Positions 20,503-56,905 of a stretch of 64,000 nucleotides of DNA are shown piece after piece. Numbering within the stretch: the first letter of the stretch is position 1; every line of letters starts with the position of its first letter. The translations under genes and the position numbers were made by a program. The notes under the pieces were generated by a model, which was not told the origin of the DNA, did no database searches, and saw only the letters and a program-made list of their open reading frames with translations. This DNA comes from Bacteroidia bacterium (GTDB lineage Bacteria; Bacteroidota; Bacteroidia; NS11-12g; UBA955): contig JAWKNQ010000008.1 of the NCBI GenBank assembly GCA_041391605.1, positions 10,732 to 74,731 of the forward strand, given 5' to 3'.

Positions 20503-20524
20503 ATAACTAATATTAAATAGCTAC

Positions 20525-20940
20525 TTCTTCGAAAGAGCATTTCGGTTCTCTTTAAGCATTTTCCTTTCAGCATTCGTCTCTGGCTAATAAGATTCTGCTT
20601 TTTGTTTTCATTTTCTTTTGGTGTTGCGTAAAATCTCGAACATAATGCTTTTAAGTTTATTTCTCCGCTTTTGCAACGGGCCGCACTATCTTTTCTTTTG
20701 GTAAAGAAAAGATGGCAAAAGAAAACCTTGCACCTGCATGCATTGTTAGGCAGAGCCTTGCCACGATGTTCGGTAAATCGACCCTATTGAGCCGATCTCC
20801 GCTATCCAGCGGAGCTGTCTCATTGGGTCCCTGATTTCCTCGAACACCGCGTCACCGCAATTCATGAATAGGTGCCGTGTCCTATTCAGCTTTATCGTTT
20901 AGCTCAAAAATCCCATATTCATTCGTTTTCAAAAAGATCA
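20525..20940. repeat. ~416-bp noncoding structured repeat, copy A (tandem with copy B)
   Basis: It begins TTCTTCGAAAGAGCAT, and the same string restarts at 20941, giving a 416-bp period. The GC-rich core at 20662-20885 is nearly identical to those of copies B and C. No ORF of 60 aa or more on either strand. Confidence 0.9.
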
Positions 20941-21353
20941 TTCTTCGAAAGAGCATCTCGATTCTCTTTAAGCGTTTTCCTTATAACATTCGTCTCTGGC
21001 GAATGAAATTCTGCTTTTGTTTTCTTCTTCTTACATTGTTCCGTTGAATTTCAAGCTTAGAACTTCTAACATATTCTCTCCGCTTGTGCAGCGGGCCGCA
21101 CTATCTTTTCTTTTGGCAAAGAAAAGTTAGCAAAAGAAAACCTTGCACCTGCATGCATTGTTAGGCAGAGCCTTACCACGATGTTCGGTAAATCGACCCT
21201 ATTGAGCCGATCTCCGCTATCCAGCGAAGCTGTATCATTGGGTCCCCGATTTACTCGAACACCGCGTCACCACAATCCATGAACAGGTGCTTTGTCTTAT
21301 CCATCATTATTTTTCAGTTCAAAATTCAGTTAGTCATTCATTTTCATTGATGA
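20941..21353. repeat. ~416-bp noncoding structured repeat, copy B
   Basis: Direct tandem repeat of copy A, with its core at about 21077-21296. The flanks are more diverged than the core. Confidence 0.9.
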
Positions 21354-23897: not shown

Positions 23898-23921
23898 TTC
23901 AATTTCCTTTAACCTACTTCA

Positions 23922-24322
23922 TCAAAAAGATAACTCGTTTTTTTATAAGCATTTCTTTTCAGCATTCGTCTCTGGCGAATGAAGTTCTGCTTTAGTTTTC
24001 ATTTTCTTTTAGTGTTTCGTAACATTTCAAACTTAGGACATCTAACATAATTTCTCCGCTTGTGCAGCGGGCCGCACTAACTTTTCTTTTGGTAAAGAAA
24101 AGTTAGCATAAGAAAACCTTGCACCTGCATGCATTGTTAGGCAGAGCCTTGTCACGGTGTCCGGTAAATCGACCCTATTGAGCCGATCTCCGCTATCCAG
24201 CCGAGCTGTCTCATTGGGTCCCCGATTTACTCGAACACCGCGTCACCACAATCCATGAACAGGTGCCGTGTCCTATTCAGCTTTATCGTTTAGCTTAAAA
24301 ATCCAGTTTCCCTTTCGTTTCT
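23922..24322. repeat. ~400-bp noncoding structured repeat, copy C (same orientation as A and B)
   Basis: Its core at about 24053-24275 aligns base-for-base with copies A and B, with a handful of substitutions. It is preceded by TCAAAAAGAT, which is also the A/B junction string. Confidence 0.9.
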
Positions 24323-32392: not shown

Positions 32393-32926
32393 GAACCTTC
32401 CTTTTTATGATTCCCTGTAGCAGAGTGCTGCGCTGCGCTCCGCACACGCTACAGGGTAAGCAAATTGGTATGAAAGTTTAAGGTTGATGTAAATACTCCA
32501 AATTTCGTTTAAACTTTCATGCAATTTGCTAAAATTTAACTTGTATTTCTTAGCCCAATTTCGTAACTTAATTACTGCGGCGTGCGTTTGCGATTTTCTT
32601 GTATTTTTTTTCATTTTTATTATGGTTTTTTAATTTTAGTGTTTTAACTTTGGTATAGATACTTCAAACTAAAACTATTGAAGCACTATAAAGTGGGAAG
32701 CCTTATTTTAAAAACTTCTAAGGCTCCCCCACTTTTTTAAAACTATGAAAACACTAAGGAAACATATCACCTTAAACCCAGTACACTTTGTACAAAAAAC
32801 TGAAAATGAATTTCGTCCTTTATTAAAAGGATTAATTCTTTTTCTAATTGTTTTCATTCGTTGCTTAAAAGCTTCCCTTTCTTCCTTTGTTACTTTATTC
32901 CAATCTCAAGACTACTTCGTATGTTC

Positions 32927-33395
32927 TCAAAGACGTTTTTATACGTTTCAAAGACAAATCAATCTCCTTCAAAGACGCTATACTAAGTTCATTGGTTTCT
33001 ATACTTTTTTCCCTAAGCTCTGTATAAAACATCTGATGTTCTGTATAAATCACCTAAAGTCCTATATAAAAAGTATGAAGTCCTATATAAAACACCCAAT
33101 GTTCTATATAAATTGCCTAAAGTCCTATATAAAAAGTGTGAAGGCCTATATAAAACACCCAATGTTCTATATAAAATGCCTAAAGTCCTATATAAAAAAT
33201 GTGAAGGCCTATATAAAACTCCTAAAGCTCTATAAAAAAAGTGTGAAGGCCTATATAAAACACCCAATGTTCTGTATAAATCACCTAAAGGACTATATAA
33301 AATGTGTGAAGGCCTATATAAAACTTGCTAAGTCCTGTACTTTTTTCCCGAGTGTCTATATAATTTGGTGGAAGTCCTATATAAATTATACGAGT
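32927..33395. repeat. 21-bp-phased direct-repeat (iteron-like) array
   Basis: TCAAAGAC occurs 3 times at exactly 21-bp spacing (32927, 32948, 32969). Then about 18 units with core (C)CTATATAAA occur every 20-22 bp (33018-33395), organised as a 63-bp higher-order repeat with three unit subtypes. Confidence 0.9.
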
Positions 33396-33857
33396 CCATT
33401 TAAGATGATGTTAAGACTTTTCATTTACCCCATAACCCACTATTTTAGAACGCATTGCACCTATAATTTAGATTCAAGTTCCACAATGCACCAAACAAGC
33501 AACTCCTTATTAAGTTTTATGCTTAACCATATAAACCGCATTGCTAAAAATACTATTCAAGAAGGGAAAACTGTATTTAAACTCCCCAGAGGAGATACGG
33601 ATGATTGGCGATTTGCGCGACCCATGTTGTTGCCTTAGCTTTATCCAAGTAATTGTATGCTGAATACAGATCGTACAAACTAAATTTTATTCAAAACTCA
33701 ATTGAAGCAAGTTCTTGCTTTCGCCAAAACGAAAAACGGAACTCTACCTGGAACCTTCTTGCCCAAACTGAAGCAATTCATTTTGGAAACAAGAGAAAAA
33801 AAATGATGGTAGTCCATTAAAATAAAAATAAAAAATAACCTTAAAAAAAATAAAATT

Positions 33858-36584: not shown

Positions 36585-38680
36585 ATGGAACAAGAAGGAG
36601 GAAATGGAGGAAAGGAAGATGGAGGTATGAGTAAGTTAGCAGATATTTTAGAACAGACCCCAAATCACACATCAAGCAATACGAAAATAAGTAATGACAA
36701 TAGGCGTAAATCAGACAGTATCACCAATAAAATTTTGTTTTCTAATTGAGCTGCTCTGAAAGCAAATTTGAACGAGCGGTTAAAATTGCGTTTTCGTATT
36801 AGAGGTGGAATTTTCAGCCCAATTTTACCTCTTCATTCTGTATTGCCAGACGAATTTAAAAATGAATATGCTATTAGAGTATGACGCTTTAAATTACTAT
36901 AAAAACACAATAGACAATTTTGACCCTGACATTATTCTTTACGACAATTCTTTGGACGTAGAATATGCTAAGACATTAATTGGAACAGGACTTTACTAAC
37001 AATTGAAGACTTTCTTGCTGACACTGAAAAGGCGAAATTAAATACGGAATAAGTGTTCCTGAACTAATTTCCAACATTATTGAAACAGAGTTTAAGTTTG
37101 TAAGAAATGACAATTTAAAACTTTCCTTAAACCTTACACAAAATTCAGGCTTATTCTTAAAATCATTTATAGGTTTGCTTTGTAGATAGCTTTCAAACGG
37201 AAATAAGTAATCCAATTAAAAATCGTATCCTCATTTTGAACAACCCGAAATAACTTTTGAAAATATTACTGACCATTTTCAAATGAAATAGTAGCACGTT
37301 GGACATCAATATGCAAGAAATCAAATCGTTTCCCGAAGGAAGAGCGTTGGTTTAAGGGCGAAGGTGTTTATTTTCTCAATGAAACAAGGCTAAACGACAT
37401 TATTAACTATTGGAATTTGAGGGCACTTGGTTGGAGTATTATTCCTATACCGTTAAGCCAAATTGACAACCCATATTTTTGCTGGTTTTATAGAAAGATT
37501 TAGTAAATATCAATTAGCAAAATCAGAAAATTTATCAATGTCAATTATTAGCTTTCAAATCAGCGTAACAACGACAACTGAACAAAGGCAAAAAATTGAC
37601 CAAAAGCTCAAGAAATAGAGGAACAAGATTGATGTCAAACTGAATTTTGCATTTCGAGCTGGTTTCCCAGATATTGGGCGGAAGAAAAGTCTGTTTTAGA
37701 AGCCGACAAAGTTTTATGTGGAAAAACACAAATTAGCTCTGCATATTCGCAAGTGGAAGTTCAAGAAAATCGGGTAAAGTTCCAAAACCGATGATTTACC
37801 ATTCAAACTTAAATACAATTACAACCTGACAGCCTCTCATAAAGAAGTAAATCTCATTCAATTACTTTGACGAGTATTTGAACAGATGCAGGCCTGATAT
37901 ATGGTATAGAAACTATTGATTGGGTAAGATTGACACATTCTTTTGGTCGAGATAAGTGGCGATTATCTAAAACTGGTCTAAGCCACTGCGTTAGACGAGA
38001 CGATAGTGAAGTGTATTTTTATGTTCCCAAAGCAAAAGATTTTTCAAAGTGTTTTTCTCTAAAGCTGGAAATAAATTAAATGAAACTTGAAATGGTCGTT
38101 TAGCAAATGAAGTATTAAAAAATATTGGAGGCATACAAGGTTCATATTTTTTGCAAAATAAATCTTCTCTCAAAATACTTGAGTTAATTGAAGACGGAAG
38201 AAAACTGTTTATCACCCACAATTAGTTGGAGAAATAAGAAAAGTTTAAAGACCAATGATAATGAACAAGTAAACTCTTATGTTAAAAGAATAATAGAAAA
38301 CAAAATAATTGAGTTTGGTTCAATTCTACAATGTGAGGTTTGTCATCAGCACGCATTTTATCTTCCATCAAATTGAGGGGAAACAATGCCTTGTGCTATT
38401 TGCAGAAATAATTTTAGTCTGCCAATGCACCACAAACCAAATAAAATGGAAGCAGCATCGTGGAATTGGACCCTTCAGTAAAAACAATAAAGTAGGTGGT
38501 GTAATAACAGTATTTTTAACTCTAAAAGTTATTCAACCAGAGATTGCTGACACTACAGGTAATATGTCTGCACTAATCGGTTTTGAGCTTTTAAAAGACA
38601 ACAATATAAAAAGAAGTTGACCTTGCAGTTATGCTTCAGGAAAAACACAAAGACAGTGTTCCACCCGACTTAATTTTTTA
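36585..38680 (+). pseudogene. heavily frame-disrupted remnant of a large gene (Zn-ribbon plus nuclease-like C-terminus)
   Basis: About 2.1 kb with no ORF over 103 aa, yet protein-like stretches hop among the three + frames. Examples are YVPKAKDFSKCFSLK / AGNKLNETWNGRLANEVLKNIGGIQGSYFLQNKSSLKILELIEDGRKLFITHN / KIIEFGSILQCEVCHQHAFY / MPCAICRNNFSLP / GIGPFSKNNKVGGVITVFLTLKVIQPEIADTTGNMSALIGFELLKD / EVDLAVMLQEKHKDSVPPDLIF. Confidence 0.55.
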
Positions 38681-39067
38681 ATGGAATGTAAAACATATAA
38701 AAACTTCACCTCTGACGATGCAGATAAAATGATTGAATTGAACAGAATTTCCCAATTCAATTCTGACTTACCTACAACACTAAATGACGAATTAACAGAA
38801 AATGAAAAAACGGAAATTTTACGAGTTGTAAATAATTTTAGAACTGGTTACGGTCACCGACCAACAAATCCTGTTCTTATTTTAACCGCAAAGGAATTGT
38901 TACCAAAAGACTTTTGGGGACATTTTTCCGAATACGAAAATGAAGCCAAAACTTATCACAAATACAACGACTGGATTGGAAATTTATGTGAGTTTACCGT
39001 AAAGAAACACTTGAACGTCAAAACTTGGGGTGAAATACAAAGTGAATTATGGCGAAAGCGGAAATGA
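38681..39067 (+). CDS. hypothetical protein, probably the still-open 3' end of the decayed upstream gene
   Basis: 128-aa ORF. Adding one T to the T6 run at 38674-38679 fuses ...EVDLAVMLQEKHKDSVPPDLIF to LMECKTYKNF, creating a D...ExK pattern that resembles PD-(D/E)xK nucleases. Confidence 0.5.
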   Translation: MECKTYKNFTSDDADKMIELNRISQFNSDLPTTLNDELTENEKTEILRVVNNFRTGYGHRPTNPVLILTAKELLPKDFWGHFSEYENEAKTYHKYNDWIGNLCEFTVKKHLNVKTWGEIQSELWRKRK

Positions 39068-39120
39068 AGAAACGAAATGAAGCAATGCAAGACAAGCAAA
39101 CGACCGAATAAAAAAACATC

Positions 39121-39252
39121 TGCTAACAGCATCTACCCAAAAGTGGCGCTTCAGTGGTTAAATCAAGCTTTGTGCTACTATCAAAGTTTGTGCTTGGTTG
39201 ACAGTGAAGTGCTTCGAAATCGCCACCTTCGGGTAGCTGCAAAACGTTAGAA
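39121..39252 (+). mobile_element. candidate integron attC site 1 (132 bp)
   Basis: It has a 5' inverse-core-like TGCTAAC and a 3' core-like GTTAGAA. The imperfect inverted arms are GCATCTACCCAAAAGTGGCG / CGCCACCTTCGGGTAGCTGC. It starts 53 nt after the stop of the preceding ORF. Confidence 0.65.
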
Positions 39253-39285
39253 GACAGTTTAAAACAACCAGATTAAAGACAAAAA

Positions 39286-39921
39286 ATGGAAACCCACATA
39301 TCCTATAGTCTAACAAAGACAATACCAGGTCCAAAACTAAAAACTGAAGGAGTAGAACAAGGTTTTGAGGTTTTAATGAATTGGTGTAAAAAATATACGA
39401 TAGGAACTTTTTATAGTATTGATTTACATTTAACCGTAAATGAAAAGGAAAAAGTTAATTTCGATTTTTTAGATAATGAATTTCTTTTAAAACCTGTCAC
39501 CGGAACAATAGAAGGCAACGAAGGAAAATACAATATCATAGAATGGAAAGTTGTGATTTCAAGATTGCCAACTTTGTTCAAATTCATTTCTGAAAAATTA
39601 GATTTTTTTGAAAAATATAAATCTCAAATTCTTTTCAGCATTGATTTTATTTTATTAAAAGAAGATGGAAATGCCTTAAAAGGACAAAGTCTTTACGATG
39701 AAAATAAACATTCAAGTTTTTTAGTCTTTATAGAGAACAATCTAATATCTTTAGAGCCACATTTTTATCTGCCATTTGAAAAAGATGACGAAGAATTTGA
39801 TAAATTTTTTAATTATCTAAAAGGCAATTTCCCATTTAAATTAGATGATAAAAATTTATATATTTCAATAAAAAATAGAAAATCCAAATGGGGTTTTACA
39901 AGGACAAAATTAAGAAAATAA
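39286..39921 (+). CDS. hypothetical protein (cassette ORF)
   Basis: 211-aa ORF bounded by attC-like sites 1 and 2. I recognise no family. Confidence 0.55.
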   Translation: METHISYSLTKTIPGPKLKTEGVEQGFEVLMNWCKKYTIGTFYSIDLHLTVNEKEKVNFDFLDNEFLLKPVTGTIEGNEGKYNIIEWKVVISRLPTLFKFISEKLDFFEKYKSQILFSIDFILLKEDGNALKGQSLYDENKHSSFLVFIENNLISLEPHFYLPFEKDDEEFDKFFNYLKGNFPFKLDDKNLYISIKNRKSKWGFTRTKLRK

Positions 39922-39929
39922 AAACCGTC

Positions 39930-40061
39930 TTCTAACAGGCGTTTGGCAAAAAAGCGGGTTTAGTGTTTAATTGAAAAATCTACCTCGTATCAACTTTTTT
40001 GTTGGGTTGACAGTTTTGTGCTTCGAAATCCACTTCTTCGCCAAGCGTCAAAACGTTAGGT
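39930..40061 (+). mobile_element. candidate integron attC site 2 (132 bp)
   Basis: TTCTAAC ... GTTAGGT is a perfect GTTRRRY core. The arms are GGCGTTTGGCAAAAAAGCGGG / CCACTTCTTCGCCAAGCGTC. It is gap-free colinear with site 1 and shares the central block GGTTGACAGT..GTGCTTCGAAATC and CAAAACGTTAG, but the arm sequences differ. Confidence 0.7.
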
Positions 40062-40071
40062 TCAAATAGAA

Positions 40072-40815
40072 ATGATGAAATCGAGAAAAGAAATATTAGA
40101 GATTAATCCAACGTTCACAAAATTCATTTTGGACTTGCAGTTGAGTTATAAACCTGAACCATTTGAGGCAGGCGATAGCGTAGCACTTGAATTAAATGAC
40201 GTTGAAGGCACTACTCTAACCAAAGAGTTAGCGGAGAAATTAAATAGAGATCAATATGATGAATTTGAGACAAACAGAGATATAAATCCATTTCCATATT
40301 CAGAAGAATTAGTGTTTATTGAAAATCGTTTGATAATATCTTCAAAGGACAATACAAGCGAATACTTGTCTGATATTGCAAATTCTATAGAAAAAATTAG
40401 ACTTGAATTAAAAGAAACTGACTTGATAGTTTTAGGCGTTCAGAATACGCCTTGGCTTTACCAAGAAAATGATTATTTACCTGCAAAAAACGCTTTAAAC
40501 TATTTAAAACAAAGAGTAAATTCTGAATTTAATGGTGGGTTTTTATTAAAAGAAGAGAGCCTTTTAGAATTTATTCCACACCTTTTTTGGCTAACAAGAT
40601 GTAATACGAGTCTGCCTCATTTTTATATGTCATTTCCAAAATCAAAAACAATAATTTCAATTTGTAAATATGGGGTTCTACACTTTGAGTTCTATAATCA
40701 AGAAGAGAAAATGAGAATACTTCAAATCTTATCAGGCTTAAACTTCAAAGAACTTGATAACTGTGGAGACCCAATTGAATTTGACAATTTTGATGGAAGA
40801 AGAATTGAAATATAA
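40072..40815 (+). CDS. hypothetical protein (cassette ORF)
   Basis: 247-aa ORF bounded by attC-like sites 2 and 3. Confidence 0.55.
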   Translation: MMKSRKEILEINPTFTKFILDLQLSYKPEPFEAGDSVALELNDVEGTTLTKELAEKLNRDQYDEFETNRDINPFPYSEELVFIENRLIISSKDNTSEYLSDIANSIEKIRLELKETDLIVLGVQNTPWLYQENDYLPAKNALNYLKQRVNSEFNGGFLLKEESLLEFIPHLFWLTRCNTSLPHFYMSFPKSKTIISICKYGVLHFEFYNQEEKMRILQILSGLNFKELDNCGDPIEFDNFDGRRIEI

Positions 40816-40821
40816 ATCAGT

Positions 40822-40878
40822 AGCTAACAAAACCTATATGCAATGCTTCGGGACACTGCTATAGCCAAAACGTAATAA
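40822..40878 (+). mobile_element. candidate short attC site 3 (57 bp, degenerate 3' core)
   Basis: AGCTAAC-AAAAC-CTATATGCAATG...CACTGCTATAG-CCAAAAC-GTAATAA. The arms pair as CTATA(T)GCAATG / CACTGCTATAG with one extra T. The 3' core is GTAAT rather than GTTRR. Confidence 0.45.
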
Positions 40879-40880
40879 TT

Positions 40881-41615
40881 ATGATTAAATATTCCCACAT
40901 AGCATTAGTTATCCTGTTTATCTTGACAGGTTGTTCGGGTTATGTAGTTGAAGATGAAGGTGTGTACTATAAAGATTGGAATGAAGCGAGAGGATCTAGT
41001 AAAAGATTATTAAAAGACCTAGACCCAAAGACATTTGAAGTACTGGACGATGATGATTATGGTAAAGATTTCAAATTTGTTTATTATCATGGAAATCCGA
41101 TAATCGGTGCAGACCCTAAAACATTTAAGGTTGTTGGGGACCAATATGCAATAGACAAGAATAGAGCTTATTATGCAGGTCTTGCTATTGAAACATCAAG
41201 TAGTAAAGGCTTTAAAATCATTGACAGTTATTACTCTTGCGACAACAAGGACTATTATTACACAACTAAACCACTTCATGTTTGCTCAACAAAAGATTTT
41301 AAAATATTTCCTAATCCGAACAACGAAAGCGAATATCAGCGTTGGGCAACAGATGGATGTTATTATTATTATATGAATTTTAAAATCCCTTCAGACGATT
41401 ATAAAAATGTTACCTTGTTTAAAGGAAGTCATGGATTTGCTAAAGACAAAAGTTGGGTTTATTGTATGGATAGAAAAATTAATTTTGATGCTGAAGGAAA
41501 TAAAATCATTGACACAGTAGATGTAGCCACATTTACAGTTACAAACTACCTTGATTGTAGAGACAAATTTGGCTGCATAAACCCTTATCATGGACGAGAA
41601 GATTGTACTGAATAA
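40881..41615 (+). CDS. DKNYY-repeat lipoprotein (cassette ORF)
   Basis: 244-aa ORF with the lipobox LTGCSG and repeated D.NYYY/DKN.AYY-type motifs (AIDKNRAYYAG, CDNKDYYY, AKDKSWVY). Confidence 0.65.
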   Translation: MIKYSHIALVILFILTGCSGYVVEDEGVYYKDWNEARGSSKRLLKDLDPKTFEVLDDDDYGKDFKFVYYHGNPIIGADPKTFKVVGDQYAIDKNRAYYAGLAIETSSSKGFKIIDSYYSCDNKDYYYTTKPLHVCSTKDFKIFPNPNNESEYQRWATDGCYYYYMNFKIPSDDYKNVTLFKGSHGFAKDKSWVYCMDRKINFDAEGNKIIDTVDVATFTVTNYLDCRDKFGCINPYHGREDCTE

Positions 41616-41620
41616 TGGCA

Positions 41621-41665
41621 ACCTAACAAAGGGAAATTGCATATTATTATCGCATTTTGTTAGAG
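41621..41665 (+). mobile_element. candidate short attC site 4 (45 bp)
   Basis: ACCTAAC (a perfect RYYYAAC) -AAAGGGAAATTGCAT...ATCGCATTTT- GTTAGAG. It starts 5 nt after the stop of the DKNYY ORF and is shorter than classical attC sites. Confidence 0.4.
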
Positions 41666-43945: not shown

Positions 43946-44218
43946 ATGAAATTAAAACAGTATTCTTCATCAAATGAAGATAACAAAACAAACATCCTCG
44001 GCTAAACACACCAGTACCTAACTGGTTTTTTGCAATAATGAGATATTTGTACTTAATTTGAGCATTGTACTTATAATGAACTGCGGTGCTAAATTGAAGG
44101 TTTGTTCTTCGGTTTCCCCATCTTCATATAGTTTGAAAACGTATTTCAAACTAATTAAATTTAAATTCCTGTTTATTGTAATCCATACCAAGAAAAACCC
44201 AAGTGAAAACCAAGACTC

Positions 44219-45073: not shown

Positions 45074-45125
45074 ATTCGGATTTCTGAATCAGATTTTAGG
45101 TATAAAAAATAAACTCTAAATATAT

Positions 45126-45153
45126 GGTTAACAAAACTAGAAACAAACTATTG
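45126..45153 (+). promoter_or_regulatory. conserved island motif, instance H (partial)
   Basis: GGTTAACAAAACTAGAAACAAACTATTG lies about 58 nt upstream of the 45211 start and matches the first half of the motif. Confidence 0.4.
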
Positions 45154-45210
45154 AAAACAAAAAACCCTAATCAACTCGGTCGATTGAACAACTTATAAGA
45201 ATTACTCCCA

Positions 45211-46131: not shown

Positions 46132-46225
46132 TAAATAGGAAAATCATAACAATTAAAACTATGAGCTGAGGTGATTGGGGTTTATTAATGGATAAAAGAG
46201 GCTTTTTATAGAATTAGCAAATTAG

Positions 46226-46263
46226 TTTGGAGAACAAAACTAGAAATAGGAAATTGCAGAAGG
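46226..46263 (+). promoter_or_regulatory. conserved island motif, instance A (reference copy)
   Basis: TTTGGAGAACAAAACTAGAAATAGGAAATTGCAGAAGG ends 54 nt upstream of the 46318 start. Confidence 0.8.
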
Positions 46264-46317
46264 AAATGAATTCATTCCGCAAATTTAAATTGACATTAAA
46301 AATTGTAAATCAATAAA

Positions 46318-48102: not shown

Positions 48103-48179
48103 AAATCTACTGAATAAGCATTCAAAACAACTAAAACCAACTAAGTTCTTTTACAACCTATAAATTAAATATACAATAA

Positions 48180-48217
48180 TTTGGAGAACAAAACTAGAAA
48201 TAGGAAATTGCAAAGTG
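48180..48217 (+). promoter_or_regulatory. conserved island motif, instance B
   Basis: TTTGGAGAACAAAACTAGAAATAGGAAATTGCAAAGTG is identical to instance A over the first 34 nt. It ends 17 nt upstream of the 48235 start. Confidence 0.8.
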
Positions 48218-48234
48218 AAAATTGAATCAACTCA

Positions 48235-49374: not shown

Positions 49375-49608
49375 GAGTAATATTTATTAAATTGATATCT
49401 AATTTGATTGGAGAATCAAAAAGAATTGAAGAAACCTATTAAATTAATTGCCATACTTGAGAAAAGCTACTACTACAAAACACGAATAAGTGATACATGC
49501 ACTTCGCAAATTGCTATGACGACTAAAAAATATATTATTAGACAAAATGACGAATAGATACTCTTAATAAAATAAATCTTAAAACGTTAGGAAATCAAGG
49601 ATAGATAA

Positions 49609-49624
49609 TAGAAATTGCAGAAGG
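49609..49624 (+). promoter_or_regulatory. conserved island motif, instance C (second half only; the first-half-like GATTGGAGAATCAAAAAGAA lies about 200 bp upstream at ~49405)
   Basis: TAGAAATTGCAGAAGG ends 51 nt upstream of the 49676 start. It is preceded at 49582-49592 by AAAACGTTAGG, the same string that ends attC sites 1 and 2. Confidence 0.45.
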
Positions 49625-49675
49625 AACAGGTTTGAGTTAACAATAGAAATTTAAATAATAAAGAAAGTTCATTCG

Positions 49676-56855: not shown

Positions 56856-56867
56856 GTGTTCTTTAAA

Positions 56868-56905
56868 TTTGGAGAACGAAACTAGAATTTGCAAATTGCG
56901 TGAGG
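56868..56905 (+). promoter_or_regulatory. conserved island motif, instance G
   Basis: TTTGGAGAACGAAACTAGAATTTGCAAATTGCGTGAGG ends 21 nt upstream of the ATG at 56927. Confidence 0.65.

Follow-up and report, generated by a model that had tools for sequence, protein, structure and literature searches.

The stretch analysed here (the window) comprises 64,000 nt of a Bacteroidia bacterium (GenBank assembly GCA_041391605.1, contig JAWKNQ010000008.1, positions 10,732 to 74,731 of the forward strand), and it carries four consecutive open reading frames (ORFs) on the + strand at 38681-39067, 39286-39921, 40072-40815 and 40881-41615. As a first-pass annotation made from the sequence alone had reported, each of them is followed, 4-53 nt on, by an element with ..TAAC at its 5' end. 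That annotation had read the elements as attC-type sites that delimit gene cassettes in a member of Bacteroidota, without a visible integrase; this is supported for the first two elements, site 1 and site 2. From comparison of sequences, we consider it very likely that these two elements, each of 132 nt, serve for recombination in a gene-cassette system of the integron-like kind. The features concerned are listed below, where R1 is a covariance model of the site family described in a later section.

36624-36635, + strand: remnant of an attI-like junction, GGTATGAGTAAG, whose last base is the G of G|TTA; matches the left half-sites GGTATAAGTAAG| and GGTATAAAYRAG| of other loci
36636-39246, + strand: cassette 1, 2611 bp, starting with TTAGCAGATATTT... 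and ending in the G of the R' core of site 1; flank pairing 8/8 plus A.C
38681-39067, + strand: ORF of cassette 1, 128 aa, no family; only a sub-threshold DUF6937 match in Pfam
39121-39252, + strand: site 1, attC-type recombination site, 132 nt; R1 160.7 bits; bottom-strand hairpin
39247-40055, + strand: cassette 2, 809 bp; flank pairing 9/10, and 8/8 plus A.C; exact homologue boundaries
39286-39921, + strand: ORF of cassette 2, 211 aa, no family; four homologues with 75-98% identity
39930-40061, + strand: site 2, attC-type, 132 nt, arms different from those of site 1, TAAC at 39933-39936 and GTTA at 40055-40058; R1 144.9 bits
40072-40815, + strand: ORF, 247 aa, no family in the Pfam scan; cassette boundaries not demonstrable
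40822-40878, + strand: site 3, probable decayed short site; R1 14.8 bits, E 0.61
40881-41615, + strand: ORF, 244 aa, DKNYY family (Pfam PF13644, E 1.9e-29)
41620-41665, no strand assigned: "site 4", hairpin CTAACAAA/TTTGTTAG, no R1 match and unsupported as a family member
44002-44156, + strand: fossil copy of the 132-nt site, after CMD-DUF1348-AraC genes; R1 39.9 bits, E 1.7e-6

Sites and cassettes in the window

The window contains an attI-like junction (36635|36636), two intact cassettes and decayed remnants further on, and no recombinase gene. It is therefore a recombinase-less, partly decayed array resembling clustered attC sites without an integron integrase (CALIN). A CALIN is recognised by at least two attC sites on the same strand with no intI nearby, and here two intact + strand sites plus remnants are found in 64 kb without a recombinase; the assignment holds for the present site family, not for the model used by IntegronFinder. 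Because no recombinase is present in the window, the array should be frozen unless a recombinase acts in trans. None of the cassette ORFs in the window gave a PADLOC match that would indicate a defence function, and none is in common with the 119 loci of the site family.

The general layout of the sites, read on the top strand, is an R'' box (variable flank and TAAC), one unpaired A, a 20-nt left arm, a conserved centre of ~74 nt, a 20-nt right arm, an AAAAC spacer and an R' box (GTTA and variable flank), with a length of 126 nt from TAAC to GTTA and an asymmetric internal loop of 1 nt versus 5 nt (AAAAC). In site 1 the TAAC core at 39124-39127 is followed by the 20-bp stem, the centre of ~74 nt, the AAAAC spacer and the GTTA core at 39246-39249, and the inferred crossover is at 39246|39247. 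Sites 1 and 2 are both 132 nt long and align without gaps with 66% identity, and the central block and the 3' end CAAAACGTTAG are common to both, as had been noted before. The arms of the two sites differ in sequence yet are self-complementary inside each site, and this earlier observation extends to the whole family, in which the arms co-vary. The boxes RYYYAAC and GTTRRRY proposed for the four elements had to be abandoned, because the strict consensus matches none of the four and only TAAC and GTTA are conserved. Both sites stand far above chance: a 93.7% identical copy is present on a Chryseobacterium plasmid (E 3e-47), copies of site 1 with 86-94% identity are found in other Bacteroidota, and the arms of site 2 represent a common "type B" present in many loci.

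The non-Watson-Crick positions in the 20-bp stem of site 1 are T.C, A.C and A.C on the top strand, so two of the three are A.C, in agreement with the first-pass annotation. When folded as DNA, the bottom strand of site 1 forms one long hairpin (-23.3 kcal/mol, z -3.7), and none of 200 shuffles was as good. For site 2, the long hairpin is not reached as the minimum-free-energy structure of DNA, because several of its pairs are G.T. The extrahelical bases that the first-pass annotation had proposed to look for are absent from the family. The conserved centre (39148-39221 in the window, and likewise in the site alignment) has four GTGNT motifs on the same strand, ~18-20 nt apart, e.g. TTTGTGCTTCGTATC and TTAGTGCTTCGAAATC; such a series suggests an array to which protein binds, in contrast to classical attC with its variable loop.

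The 5' end of cassette 1 was predicted from the R'' flank of site 1 (TTAGCAGATATTT) and found at 36636 with 0 mismatches, where ~6e-4 occurrences are expected by chance. In a blind scan of the whole window, in which GTT(A/G) plus flank was compared with flank plus (T/C)AAC, only the pairs 36635->39127 and 39246->39936 have the signature of 8/8 plus A.C, and all other pairs belong to a 7/8 background without the A.C signature. These two pairs give two demonstrable cassettes in the window, 36636-39246 and 39247-40055. When the circular junctions are rebuilt, the bottom strand folds at -32.6 kcal/mol for cassette 1 and -21.9 kcal/mol for cassette 2, versus -25.3 and -14.8 kcal/mol, respectively, as found in the array. 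Four single-gene cassettes had been proposed; the two just described have boundaries demonstrable by junction pairing, and no cassette can be demonstrated for the ORFs at 40072 and 40881, whose pairing is within background.

Cassette 1 starts 2 kb upstream of its ORF, at the attI-like junction, and has a clean ORF only in its last 0.4 kb, the part at 36636-38680 consisting of short broken ORFs. This ORF-poor part may be pseudogene debris or fused decayed cassettes; it has no homology to the family loci fetched, and tblastn over the ORF-poor stretch at 36.2-38.7 kb found no recombinase remnant.

Evidence for mobility comes from cassette 2. No relatives of this cassette were found in a metagenome scan, though a large protein database gave four homologues of its ORF. 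Three of these could be placed, on separate contigs of a single metagenome, and a family site (110-133 bits) comes after each of them. The DNA homology of cassette 2 in two of these loci, L123 (86.7%) and L125 (79.8%), covers exactly positions 1-809 of the cassette, from G|TTAG to AAAACG|, and the flanks are unrelated. The expectation of the first-pass annotation that cassettes are gained or lost precisely at G|TT boundaries is therefore supported by the exact ends of this homology, and also by the flank pairing of 91 cassettes described in the next section.

Site 3 is composed of TAAC, a stem of 10 bp in which one T is bulged and one pair is A.C, then CCAAAAC and a core GTAA where GTT is expected, and its fold has a z of -0.6; it is a probable decayed short site in which the GTT triplet has mutated. 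Sites 3 and 4 were tried as cassette ends and rejected, because the R' flank of site 2 pairs at 5/10 with site 3 and at 6/10 with site 4 (counted from the sequence), which is within background. Of these two elements, both formerly described as attC-like, only site 3 is retained, with its GTAA core and as a probable decayed site, and site 4 is not found by R1. The left half of site 4 resembles another repeat of the window, the GGAAATTGCA motif / AAACTAGAAATAGGAAATTGCA (repeat family D5). The fossil site at 44002-44156 has many broken stem pairs and a 1-nt deletion in its R' core. A motif GGAGAACAAAACTAGAAATAGGAAATTGCA, which the left half of site 4 resembles, is repeated 0-90 nt upstream of successive + strand genes, at 45120-45163, 46223-46266, 48177-48220, 49584-49627, ~51090 and 56856-56899 (and at 41620-41641), and these repeats may be a shared promoter or operator.

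The site family in other genomes and the proposed unit of exchange

The block common to sites 1 and 2 was used as an exact pattern, TGCTTCGAAATC N17-21 CAAAACGTTAG, for scanning species-representative genomes. This strict pattern gave at least 119 loci, and the hosts are almost all Bacteroidota. Hosts among the matches listed belong to Flavobacteriales, Sphingobacteriales, Chitinophagales, Cytophagales, Bacteroidales, Ignavibacteria, Chloroherpeton and Balneolales, with cultured type strains included, and the few outliers are found on short contigs that are probably misbinned. The site is found also on plasmids of Chryseobacterium, Emticicia and Myroides, and no copy was found in viral contigs. 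A search of Rfam 15 gave 0 matches at the gathering score and noise only at E up to 10.

The covariance model R1 was built from an alignment of 106 sites, and the later counts rest on the 119 loci listed. The aligned sites represent several discrete arm types, in which both arms change together. For the 106 sites RNAalifold gave 13 pairs, 11 of which have double compensatory changes. In the 25-pair structure, 84.2% of the cells are paired (66.6% after shuffling) and the covariation score is 0.399 (0.116 after shuffling), a value reached by 0 of 500 shuffles; when the partner is slid by 1-3 columns, pairing falls to 28-41%. TAAC is present in 185 and GTTA in 204 of 219 sites. The 20-bp stem aligns gap-free and has no bulged bases. 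Two of its pairs are characteristic: pair 74-162 is never Watson-Crick on the top strand (0/106 sites), pair 71-165 departs from Watson-Crick pairing in 78 of these 106, and both are A.C in the consensus arm types, which for pair 74-162 means G.T on the bottom strand. The family therefore has the properties of an attC site, i.e., an imperfect inverted repeat of ~57-141 bp with AAC/GTT ends, whose pairing is kept while the arms vary, except that there is sequence conservation in centre and spacer and that the strict consensus is unmatched. The extrahelical bases and symmetric central spacer of attC are absent.

The bottom strand is the more stable one in 142 of 206 sites (p 1e-9), and the 20-bp stem has 298 cases of top-strand A.C, equivalent to G.T on the bottom strand, versus 98 of top-strand G.T. 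From these counts on sequences we lean, if only somewhat, to the folded bottom strand as the substrate, as in integrons.

Other types of sites, with the same architecture and another sequence and spacer (CAACC and CAGAAC among the spacers), precede cassettes in L077, L098, L057, L002, L104, L059 and L009, e.g. ...CCCAACCG|TTA and ...CCAGAACG|TTA. Since these are missed by R1, arrays and prevalence are underestimated here. A small protein encoded on the bottom strand of the site (open for ~43 codons) was also considered and rejected, because the start codon is unconserved, lengths vary by 1-2 nt and by 37-nt deletions, and the arm changes are compensatory.

At E up to 0.01, R1 detected 323 sites in the 119 loci listed. 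All sites within a locus are on one strand, with up to ten per 8 kb and a spacing of 0.5-1.5 kb, and the median length of 94 inter-site units is 984 bp. In 90 of these 94 cassettes the longest ORF is co-oriented with the site, and the median cover is 88% of the unit. If exchange takes place at G|TT, the nucleotides that follow GTTA in one site are already part of the next cassette, and should pair with the flank of the next site and not with that of their own site. The 10 nt after GTTA of one site were thus compared with the 10 nt before TAAC of another, and the matches were counted.

Same cassette: n = 91, mean 6.93/10, at least 7 matches in 67%
Same site: n = 219, mean 3.54/10, at least 7 matches in 5.9%
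Wrong direction: n = 103, mean 3.36/10, at least 7 matches in 1.9%
Random other locus: n = 19838, mean 3.26/10, at least 7 matches in 2.7%

Because the flanks pair only within the same cassette, each cassette is a circularly permuted unit, whose exchange would take place at G|TT. No flank pair reaches 10/10; position 7 is always mismatched, with A in R' opposite C or G in R''. From this fixed mismatch, a circular cassette would rebuild a site whose R stem has 14-16 bp and holds one fixed unpaired A. A gene cassette in the sense used for integrons is one usually promoterless ORF plus an attC, circularly permuted and exchanged at G|TT, and the flank pairing, the ORF orientation, the boundaries of cassette 2 and the folding of the rebuilt junctions all agree with this definition. 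One cassette is common to metagenome-assembled genomes (MAGs) of Sediminibacterium and of Flavobacteriales, with 94-97% identity.

Recombinases, first-cassette junctions and plasmids

An IntI-like tyrosine recombinase gene is present in 18 of the 119 listed loci, mostly directly upstream of the array and co-oriented with it, and a complete example is available in a finished genome (Algoriphagus yeomjeoni CP187512.1). In at least 12 loci the predicted start of the first cassette is found 60-190 nt beyond the stop codon of the recombinase gene, always after G, and the base before the first detected cassette is G in all 51 loci where the start was located. Many of the first-cassette junctions share the left half GGTATAAAYRAG| with a local inverted repeat before it, and a left half-site GGTATAAGTAAG| or GGTATAAAYRAG| is found before the first cassette in L071, L087, L028, L013, L096, L081 and others. 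What characterises attI, an insertion site that adjoins the gene of the integrase and is joined to the first cassette at G|TT, is therefore found in related loci, and the window keeps GGTATGAGTAAG|TTAG without the gene; this junction (36635|36636) fits the consensus. Because several recombinase-less loci keep only the last codons of the gene, gene loss is common. Some recombinase-less array starts represent other site types or deletions.

The array-linked recombinases are composed of PF13495 and PF00589, and NCBI names these proteins "site-specific tyrosine recombinase/integron integrase". With TIGR02249 ("integron integrase", cutoff 265) they scored 196-219 bits in two separate stretches, and 8 of the 8 tested were below the cutoff; with NF040815 ("XerA/integron integrase", cutoff 220) they scored 194-231 bits, and 4 of 8 passed. 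They are far under the equivalog cutoffs of XerC (TIGR02224) and XerD (TIGR02225). Alignment with a manually entered IntI1 sequence leaves a gap of ~44 residues. The best PDB match of the L024 recombinase is XerA (5HXY, 167 bits) in one stretch, and with IntI4 (2A3V) it aligns in two stretches that leave chain residues ~210-242 unmatched. Taken together, the gaps against the profile, IntI1 and PDB sequences indicate that the array-linked recombinases are without the additional domain that defines IntI. An intI with the additional domain near patch III, the mark of a canonical integron, was found neither in the window nor in the related loci tested. The catalytic halves are mostly 45-81% identical across orders, which indicates a coherent clade. 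On the evidence of gene position and sequence, these recombinases are probably the cognate enzymes of the arrays, and we infer that the system is still active in some hosts. In a previous survey, recombinases without the intI_Cterm domain were counted as "not IntI" (Cury et al., 2016; PMC4889954), and incomplete conservation of the insertion has been noted for an "integron-like" subgroup (Smyshlyaev et al., 2021; PMC8138268).

Some of the array-linked recombinases (L068:6271-7893 and L106:2409-3788, and also those in L043, L024 and L071) have one or two N-terminal modules of ~90 aa with a motif W..W.(V/L)P. Matches of these modules to the HARP domain are borderline (27.6 bits for L068, with a cutoff of 25, and 21.9 bits for L106). 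HARP domains of SMARCAL1 bind branched DNA.

In the clinical Myroides odoratimimus plasmid p63039 (L121, NZ_CP013691.1 49361-63478), family sites scoring 80, 106 and 48 bits come directly after the genes for a GNAT acetyltransferase, blaOXA and blaMYO-1, respectively, and a further family site is present before the second copy of aadS. Flanking the array and the copies of aadS are recurrent pairs, each made up of a tyrosine recombinase without the insertion and a transposase of the IS91 family. On a plasmid of Chryseobacterium sp. SNU WT5 (L120, NZ_CP041688.1), the array contains, on its other strand, a gene for the reverse transcriptase of a group II intron, and three + strand sites are each followed, within 5 nt, by a GC-richer element of 172 nt that has a weak model match on the - strand.

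Comparison with integrons and other explanations

The system works like an integron and is not a canonical integron: its recombinase without the IntI insertion and its sites without extrahelical bases make it an integron-like variant. In common with classical integrons (the mobile classes 1-5 and the sedentary ones of Vibrio and Xanthomonas) and with CALINs, there are arrays in which the ORFs are mostly single, share one orientation and look promoterless, and in which an imperfect palindrome with ...AAC / GTT... ends stands after each ORF. Other features shared with classical integrons are the exchange at G|TT with the last bases of the site owned by the next cassette, an insertion site beside the recombinase gene, the existence of recombinase-less arrays, arms that keep pairing while their sequence changes, hints of a bottom-strand preference, and resistance cassettes on plasmids (here blaOXA and blaMYO-1 on Myroides p63039). 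Unlike in classical integrons, the Bacteroidota recombinase has no IntI additional domain and is encoded upstream of the cassettes, pointing the same way; a 1x5 asymmetric internal loop replaces the roughly symmetric unpaired central spacer of attC, and the R stem in the circular cassette is ~14-16 bp long.

The gene order and orientation are those of the "reverse" integrons of the Treponema denticola type, in which intI is upstream of the cassettes in the same orientation and the insertion site is on its 3' side. To our knowledge, the additional domain is present in the IntIs of "reverse" integrons, and standard models detect their attC sites; the recombinases found here in Bacteroidota differ in lacking this domain. 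The two-domain architecture PF13495 plus PF00589 is shared with XerA, XerC and XerD. Unlike Xer enzymes acting at chromosomal dif, the Bacteroidota recombinases adjoin cassette arrays, and several of them have N-terminal extensions. The pairs of recombinase and IS91 transposase that flank the GNAT-blaOXA-blaMYO-1-aadS cassettes on p63039 resemble regions linked to ISCR/IS91, and the xerD-tet(X)-ISCR2 type of context is an ISCR-linked resistance region ("complex" integrons). Rolling-circle mobilisation by IS91, however, yields no single-gene units with circularly permuted hairpin ends, and no IS91 is present in the window.

If the sites function as proposed, a tyrosine recombinase would exchange strands at G|TT of the R' box, and a cassette would consist of TTA plus flank and one co-oriented ORF, up to the next ...AAAACG. 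The circular cassette would then rebuild a site with an R stem of ~14-16 bp and one conserved unpaired A, and new cassettes would enter at the attI-like site (..GGTATAAAYRAG|TTA), just downstream of the recombinase gene where the gene is present.

Several observations weigh against this interpretation. The earlier statement that the window has no tyrosine recombinase was confirmed, as tblastn with IntI1 and eight Bacteroidota recombinases found neither a gene nor a remnant in the 64-kb window and gave noise only. A recombinase gene is present within 1.5 kb in only 9 of the 30 located array starts having at least 1 kb of upstream sequence. According to the passage of PMC9668308 that cites Messier and Roy (2001), the IntI insertion is necessary for IntI activity, and the recombinases neighbouring these arrays are without it. 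The advantage of the bottom strand is small (mean 1.1 kcal/mol). Unlike attC, the sites have fixed mismatches in place of bulged bases, and the sequence of their ~74-nt centre is maintained across orders. Neither site 3 nor site 4 fits the family. Moreover, L030, L050 and L070 have hybrid sites in which the left and the right arm belong to different types, and these non-matching arms make the 20-bp stem impossible; such hybrids may arise by homologous exchange within the conserved centre.

Three other explanations were weighed. The sites could be ordinary attC sites on which a classical IntI encoded elsewhere in the genome acts in trans, with the insertion-less recombinases as bystanders. This would suit the G|TT logic, the co-oriented single-ORF cassettes and the CALIN-like window, all of which are classical, as well as the minority of located array starts that a recombinase adjoins. 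We nevertheless regard it as quite unlikely, because all eight array-linked recombinases tested miss the cutoff of TIGR02249 and match it in two stretches, the L024 enzyme leaves residues ~210-242 of IntI4 (2A3V) unmatched, the array-linked recombinases form one clade and in at least 12 loci are encoded at a distance of 60-190 nt from the first-cassette junction, bulged bases are absent from the sites, and surveys with IntegronFinder contain almost no integrons of Bacteroidetes (PMC9024848). Real cassette exchange on double-stranded core sites in the manner of Xer/dif, in which the long palindrome would be incidental and no folding would take place, is very improbable in our judgement: many arm types keep their pairing by double changes across 74 nt and flanks pair within the same cassette only, which points to selection on pairing rather than on protein-binding sequence, and the non-Watson-Crick positions are fixed and strand-asymmetric. 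In its favour are XerA (5HXY) as the closest solved relative of the recombinase, the long hairpin of site 2 that is not its minimum-free-energy structure, and the smallness of the bottom-strand advantage.

It is hardly credible that the elements are structured RNA signals (terminators, 3' untranslated-region elements or antisense small RNAs) or a non-autonomous miniature inverted-repeat transposable element (MITE) or repetitive extragenic palindrome (REP), their position after ORFs reflecting a transcript function or an insertion preference. A conserved, co-varying structure right after stop codons would be expected in that case, and such a hairpin could also terminate transcription. Against it, Rfam has no match even with E up to 10, the strand that the asymmetry favours is antisense to the ORFs, and neither the circular permutation of the flanks nor the exact ends of cassette homology are explained by an RNA function. 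Terminal inverted repeats with target-site duplications are absent, and the site is not scattered in the window. The proposal that the element is not a generic REP or MITE is consequently upheld, because window copies are confined to 39.1-44.2 kb on one strand and same-strand arrays with co-oriented ORFs exist elsewhere.

Returning to the integron-like reading, we favour, with rather less assurance than for the sites themselves, the view that Bacteroidota have their own deep-branching lineage of integron-like gene capture, apparently missed by standard tools, as judged from published IntegronFinder surveys. In such a lineage, an XerA/IntI-like enzyme that lacks the IntI domain, and that sometimes has N-terminal modules resembling HARP, would read hairpins by fixed mismatches, the asymmetric loop and the conserved centre and not by extrahelical bases; it would move cassettes between orders, and would already have assembled beta-lactamase and acetyltransferase cassettes on a clinical Myroides plasmid. 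Our full-text literature search found no published description of these arrays and no print of the site sequence, but the library searched is incomplete and the novelty is provisional. The IntegronFinder 2.0 paper reports for Bacteroidetes only In0 elements in the 2016 survey and a single complete integron, in Salinibacter (PMC9024848).

If the Bacteroidota arrays are active, both the view that integron integrases need their extra domain for recombining folded attC sites and the reported near-absence of integrons in Bacteroidetes need revising, and a phylum-wide cassette system with a recombinase without the IntI domain and a differently built site would provide a natural comparison for how tyrosine recombinases read folded DNA. 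Surveys of resistance and accessory genes that use models of the IntegronFinder type would miss cassette-borne genes of Bacteroidota, such as blaOXA and blaMYO-1 on the clinical Myroides plasmid. Since several cultured type strains carry complete elements, direct testing is possible.

Apart from the array, the window encodes a protein with a type IX secretion system (T9SS) sorting domain. An intergenic repeat of ~390 nt is present in three ~91% identical copies (20515-20915, 20930-21320 and 23915-24310) with two strong hairpins and a GC-richer 3' half; two of the copies are in tandem after the PNPase gene, and the repeat has no Rfam match. Tandem repeats of 21 nt, in at least 13 registers, are found at 32934-33395 inside the ORF at 32745-33638.

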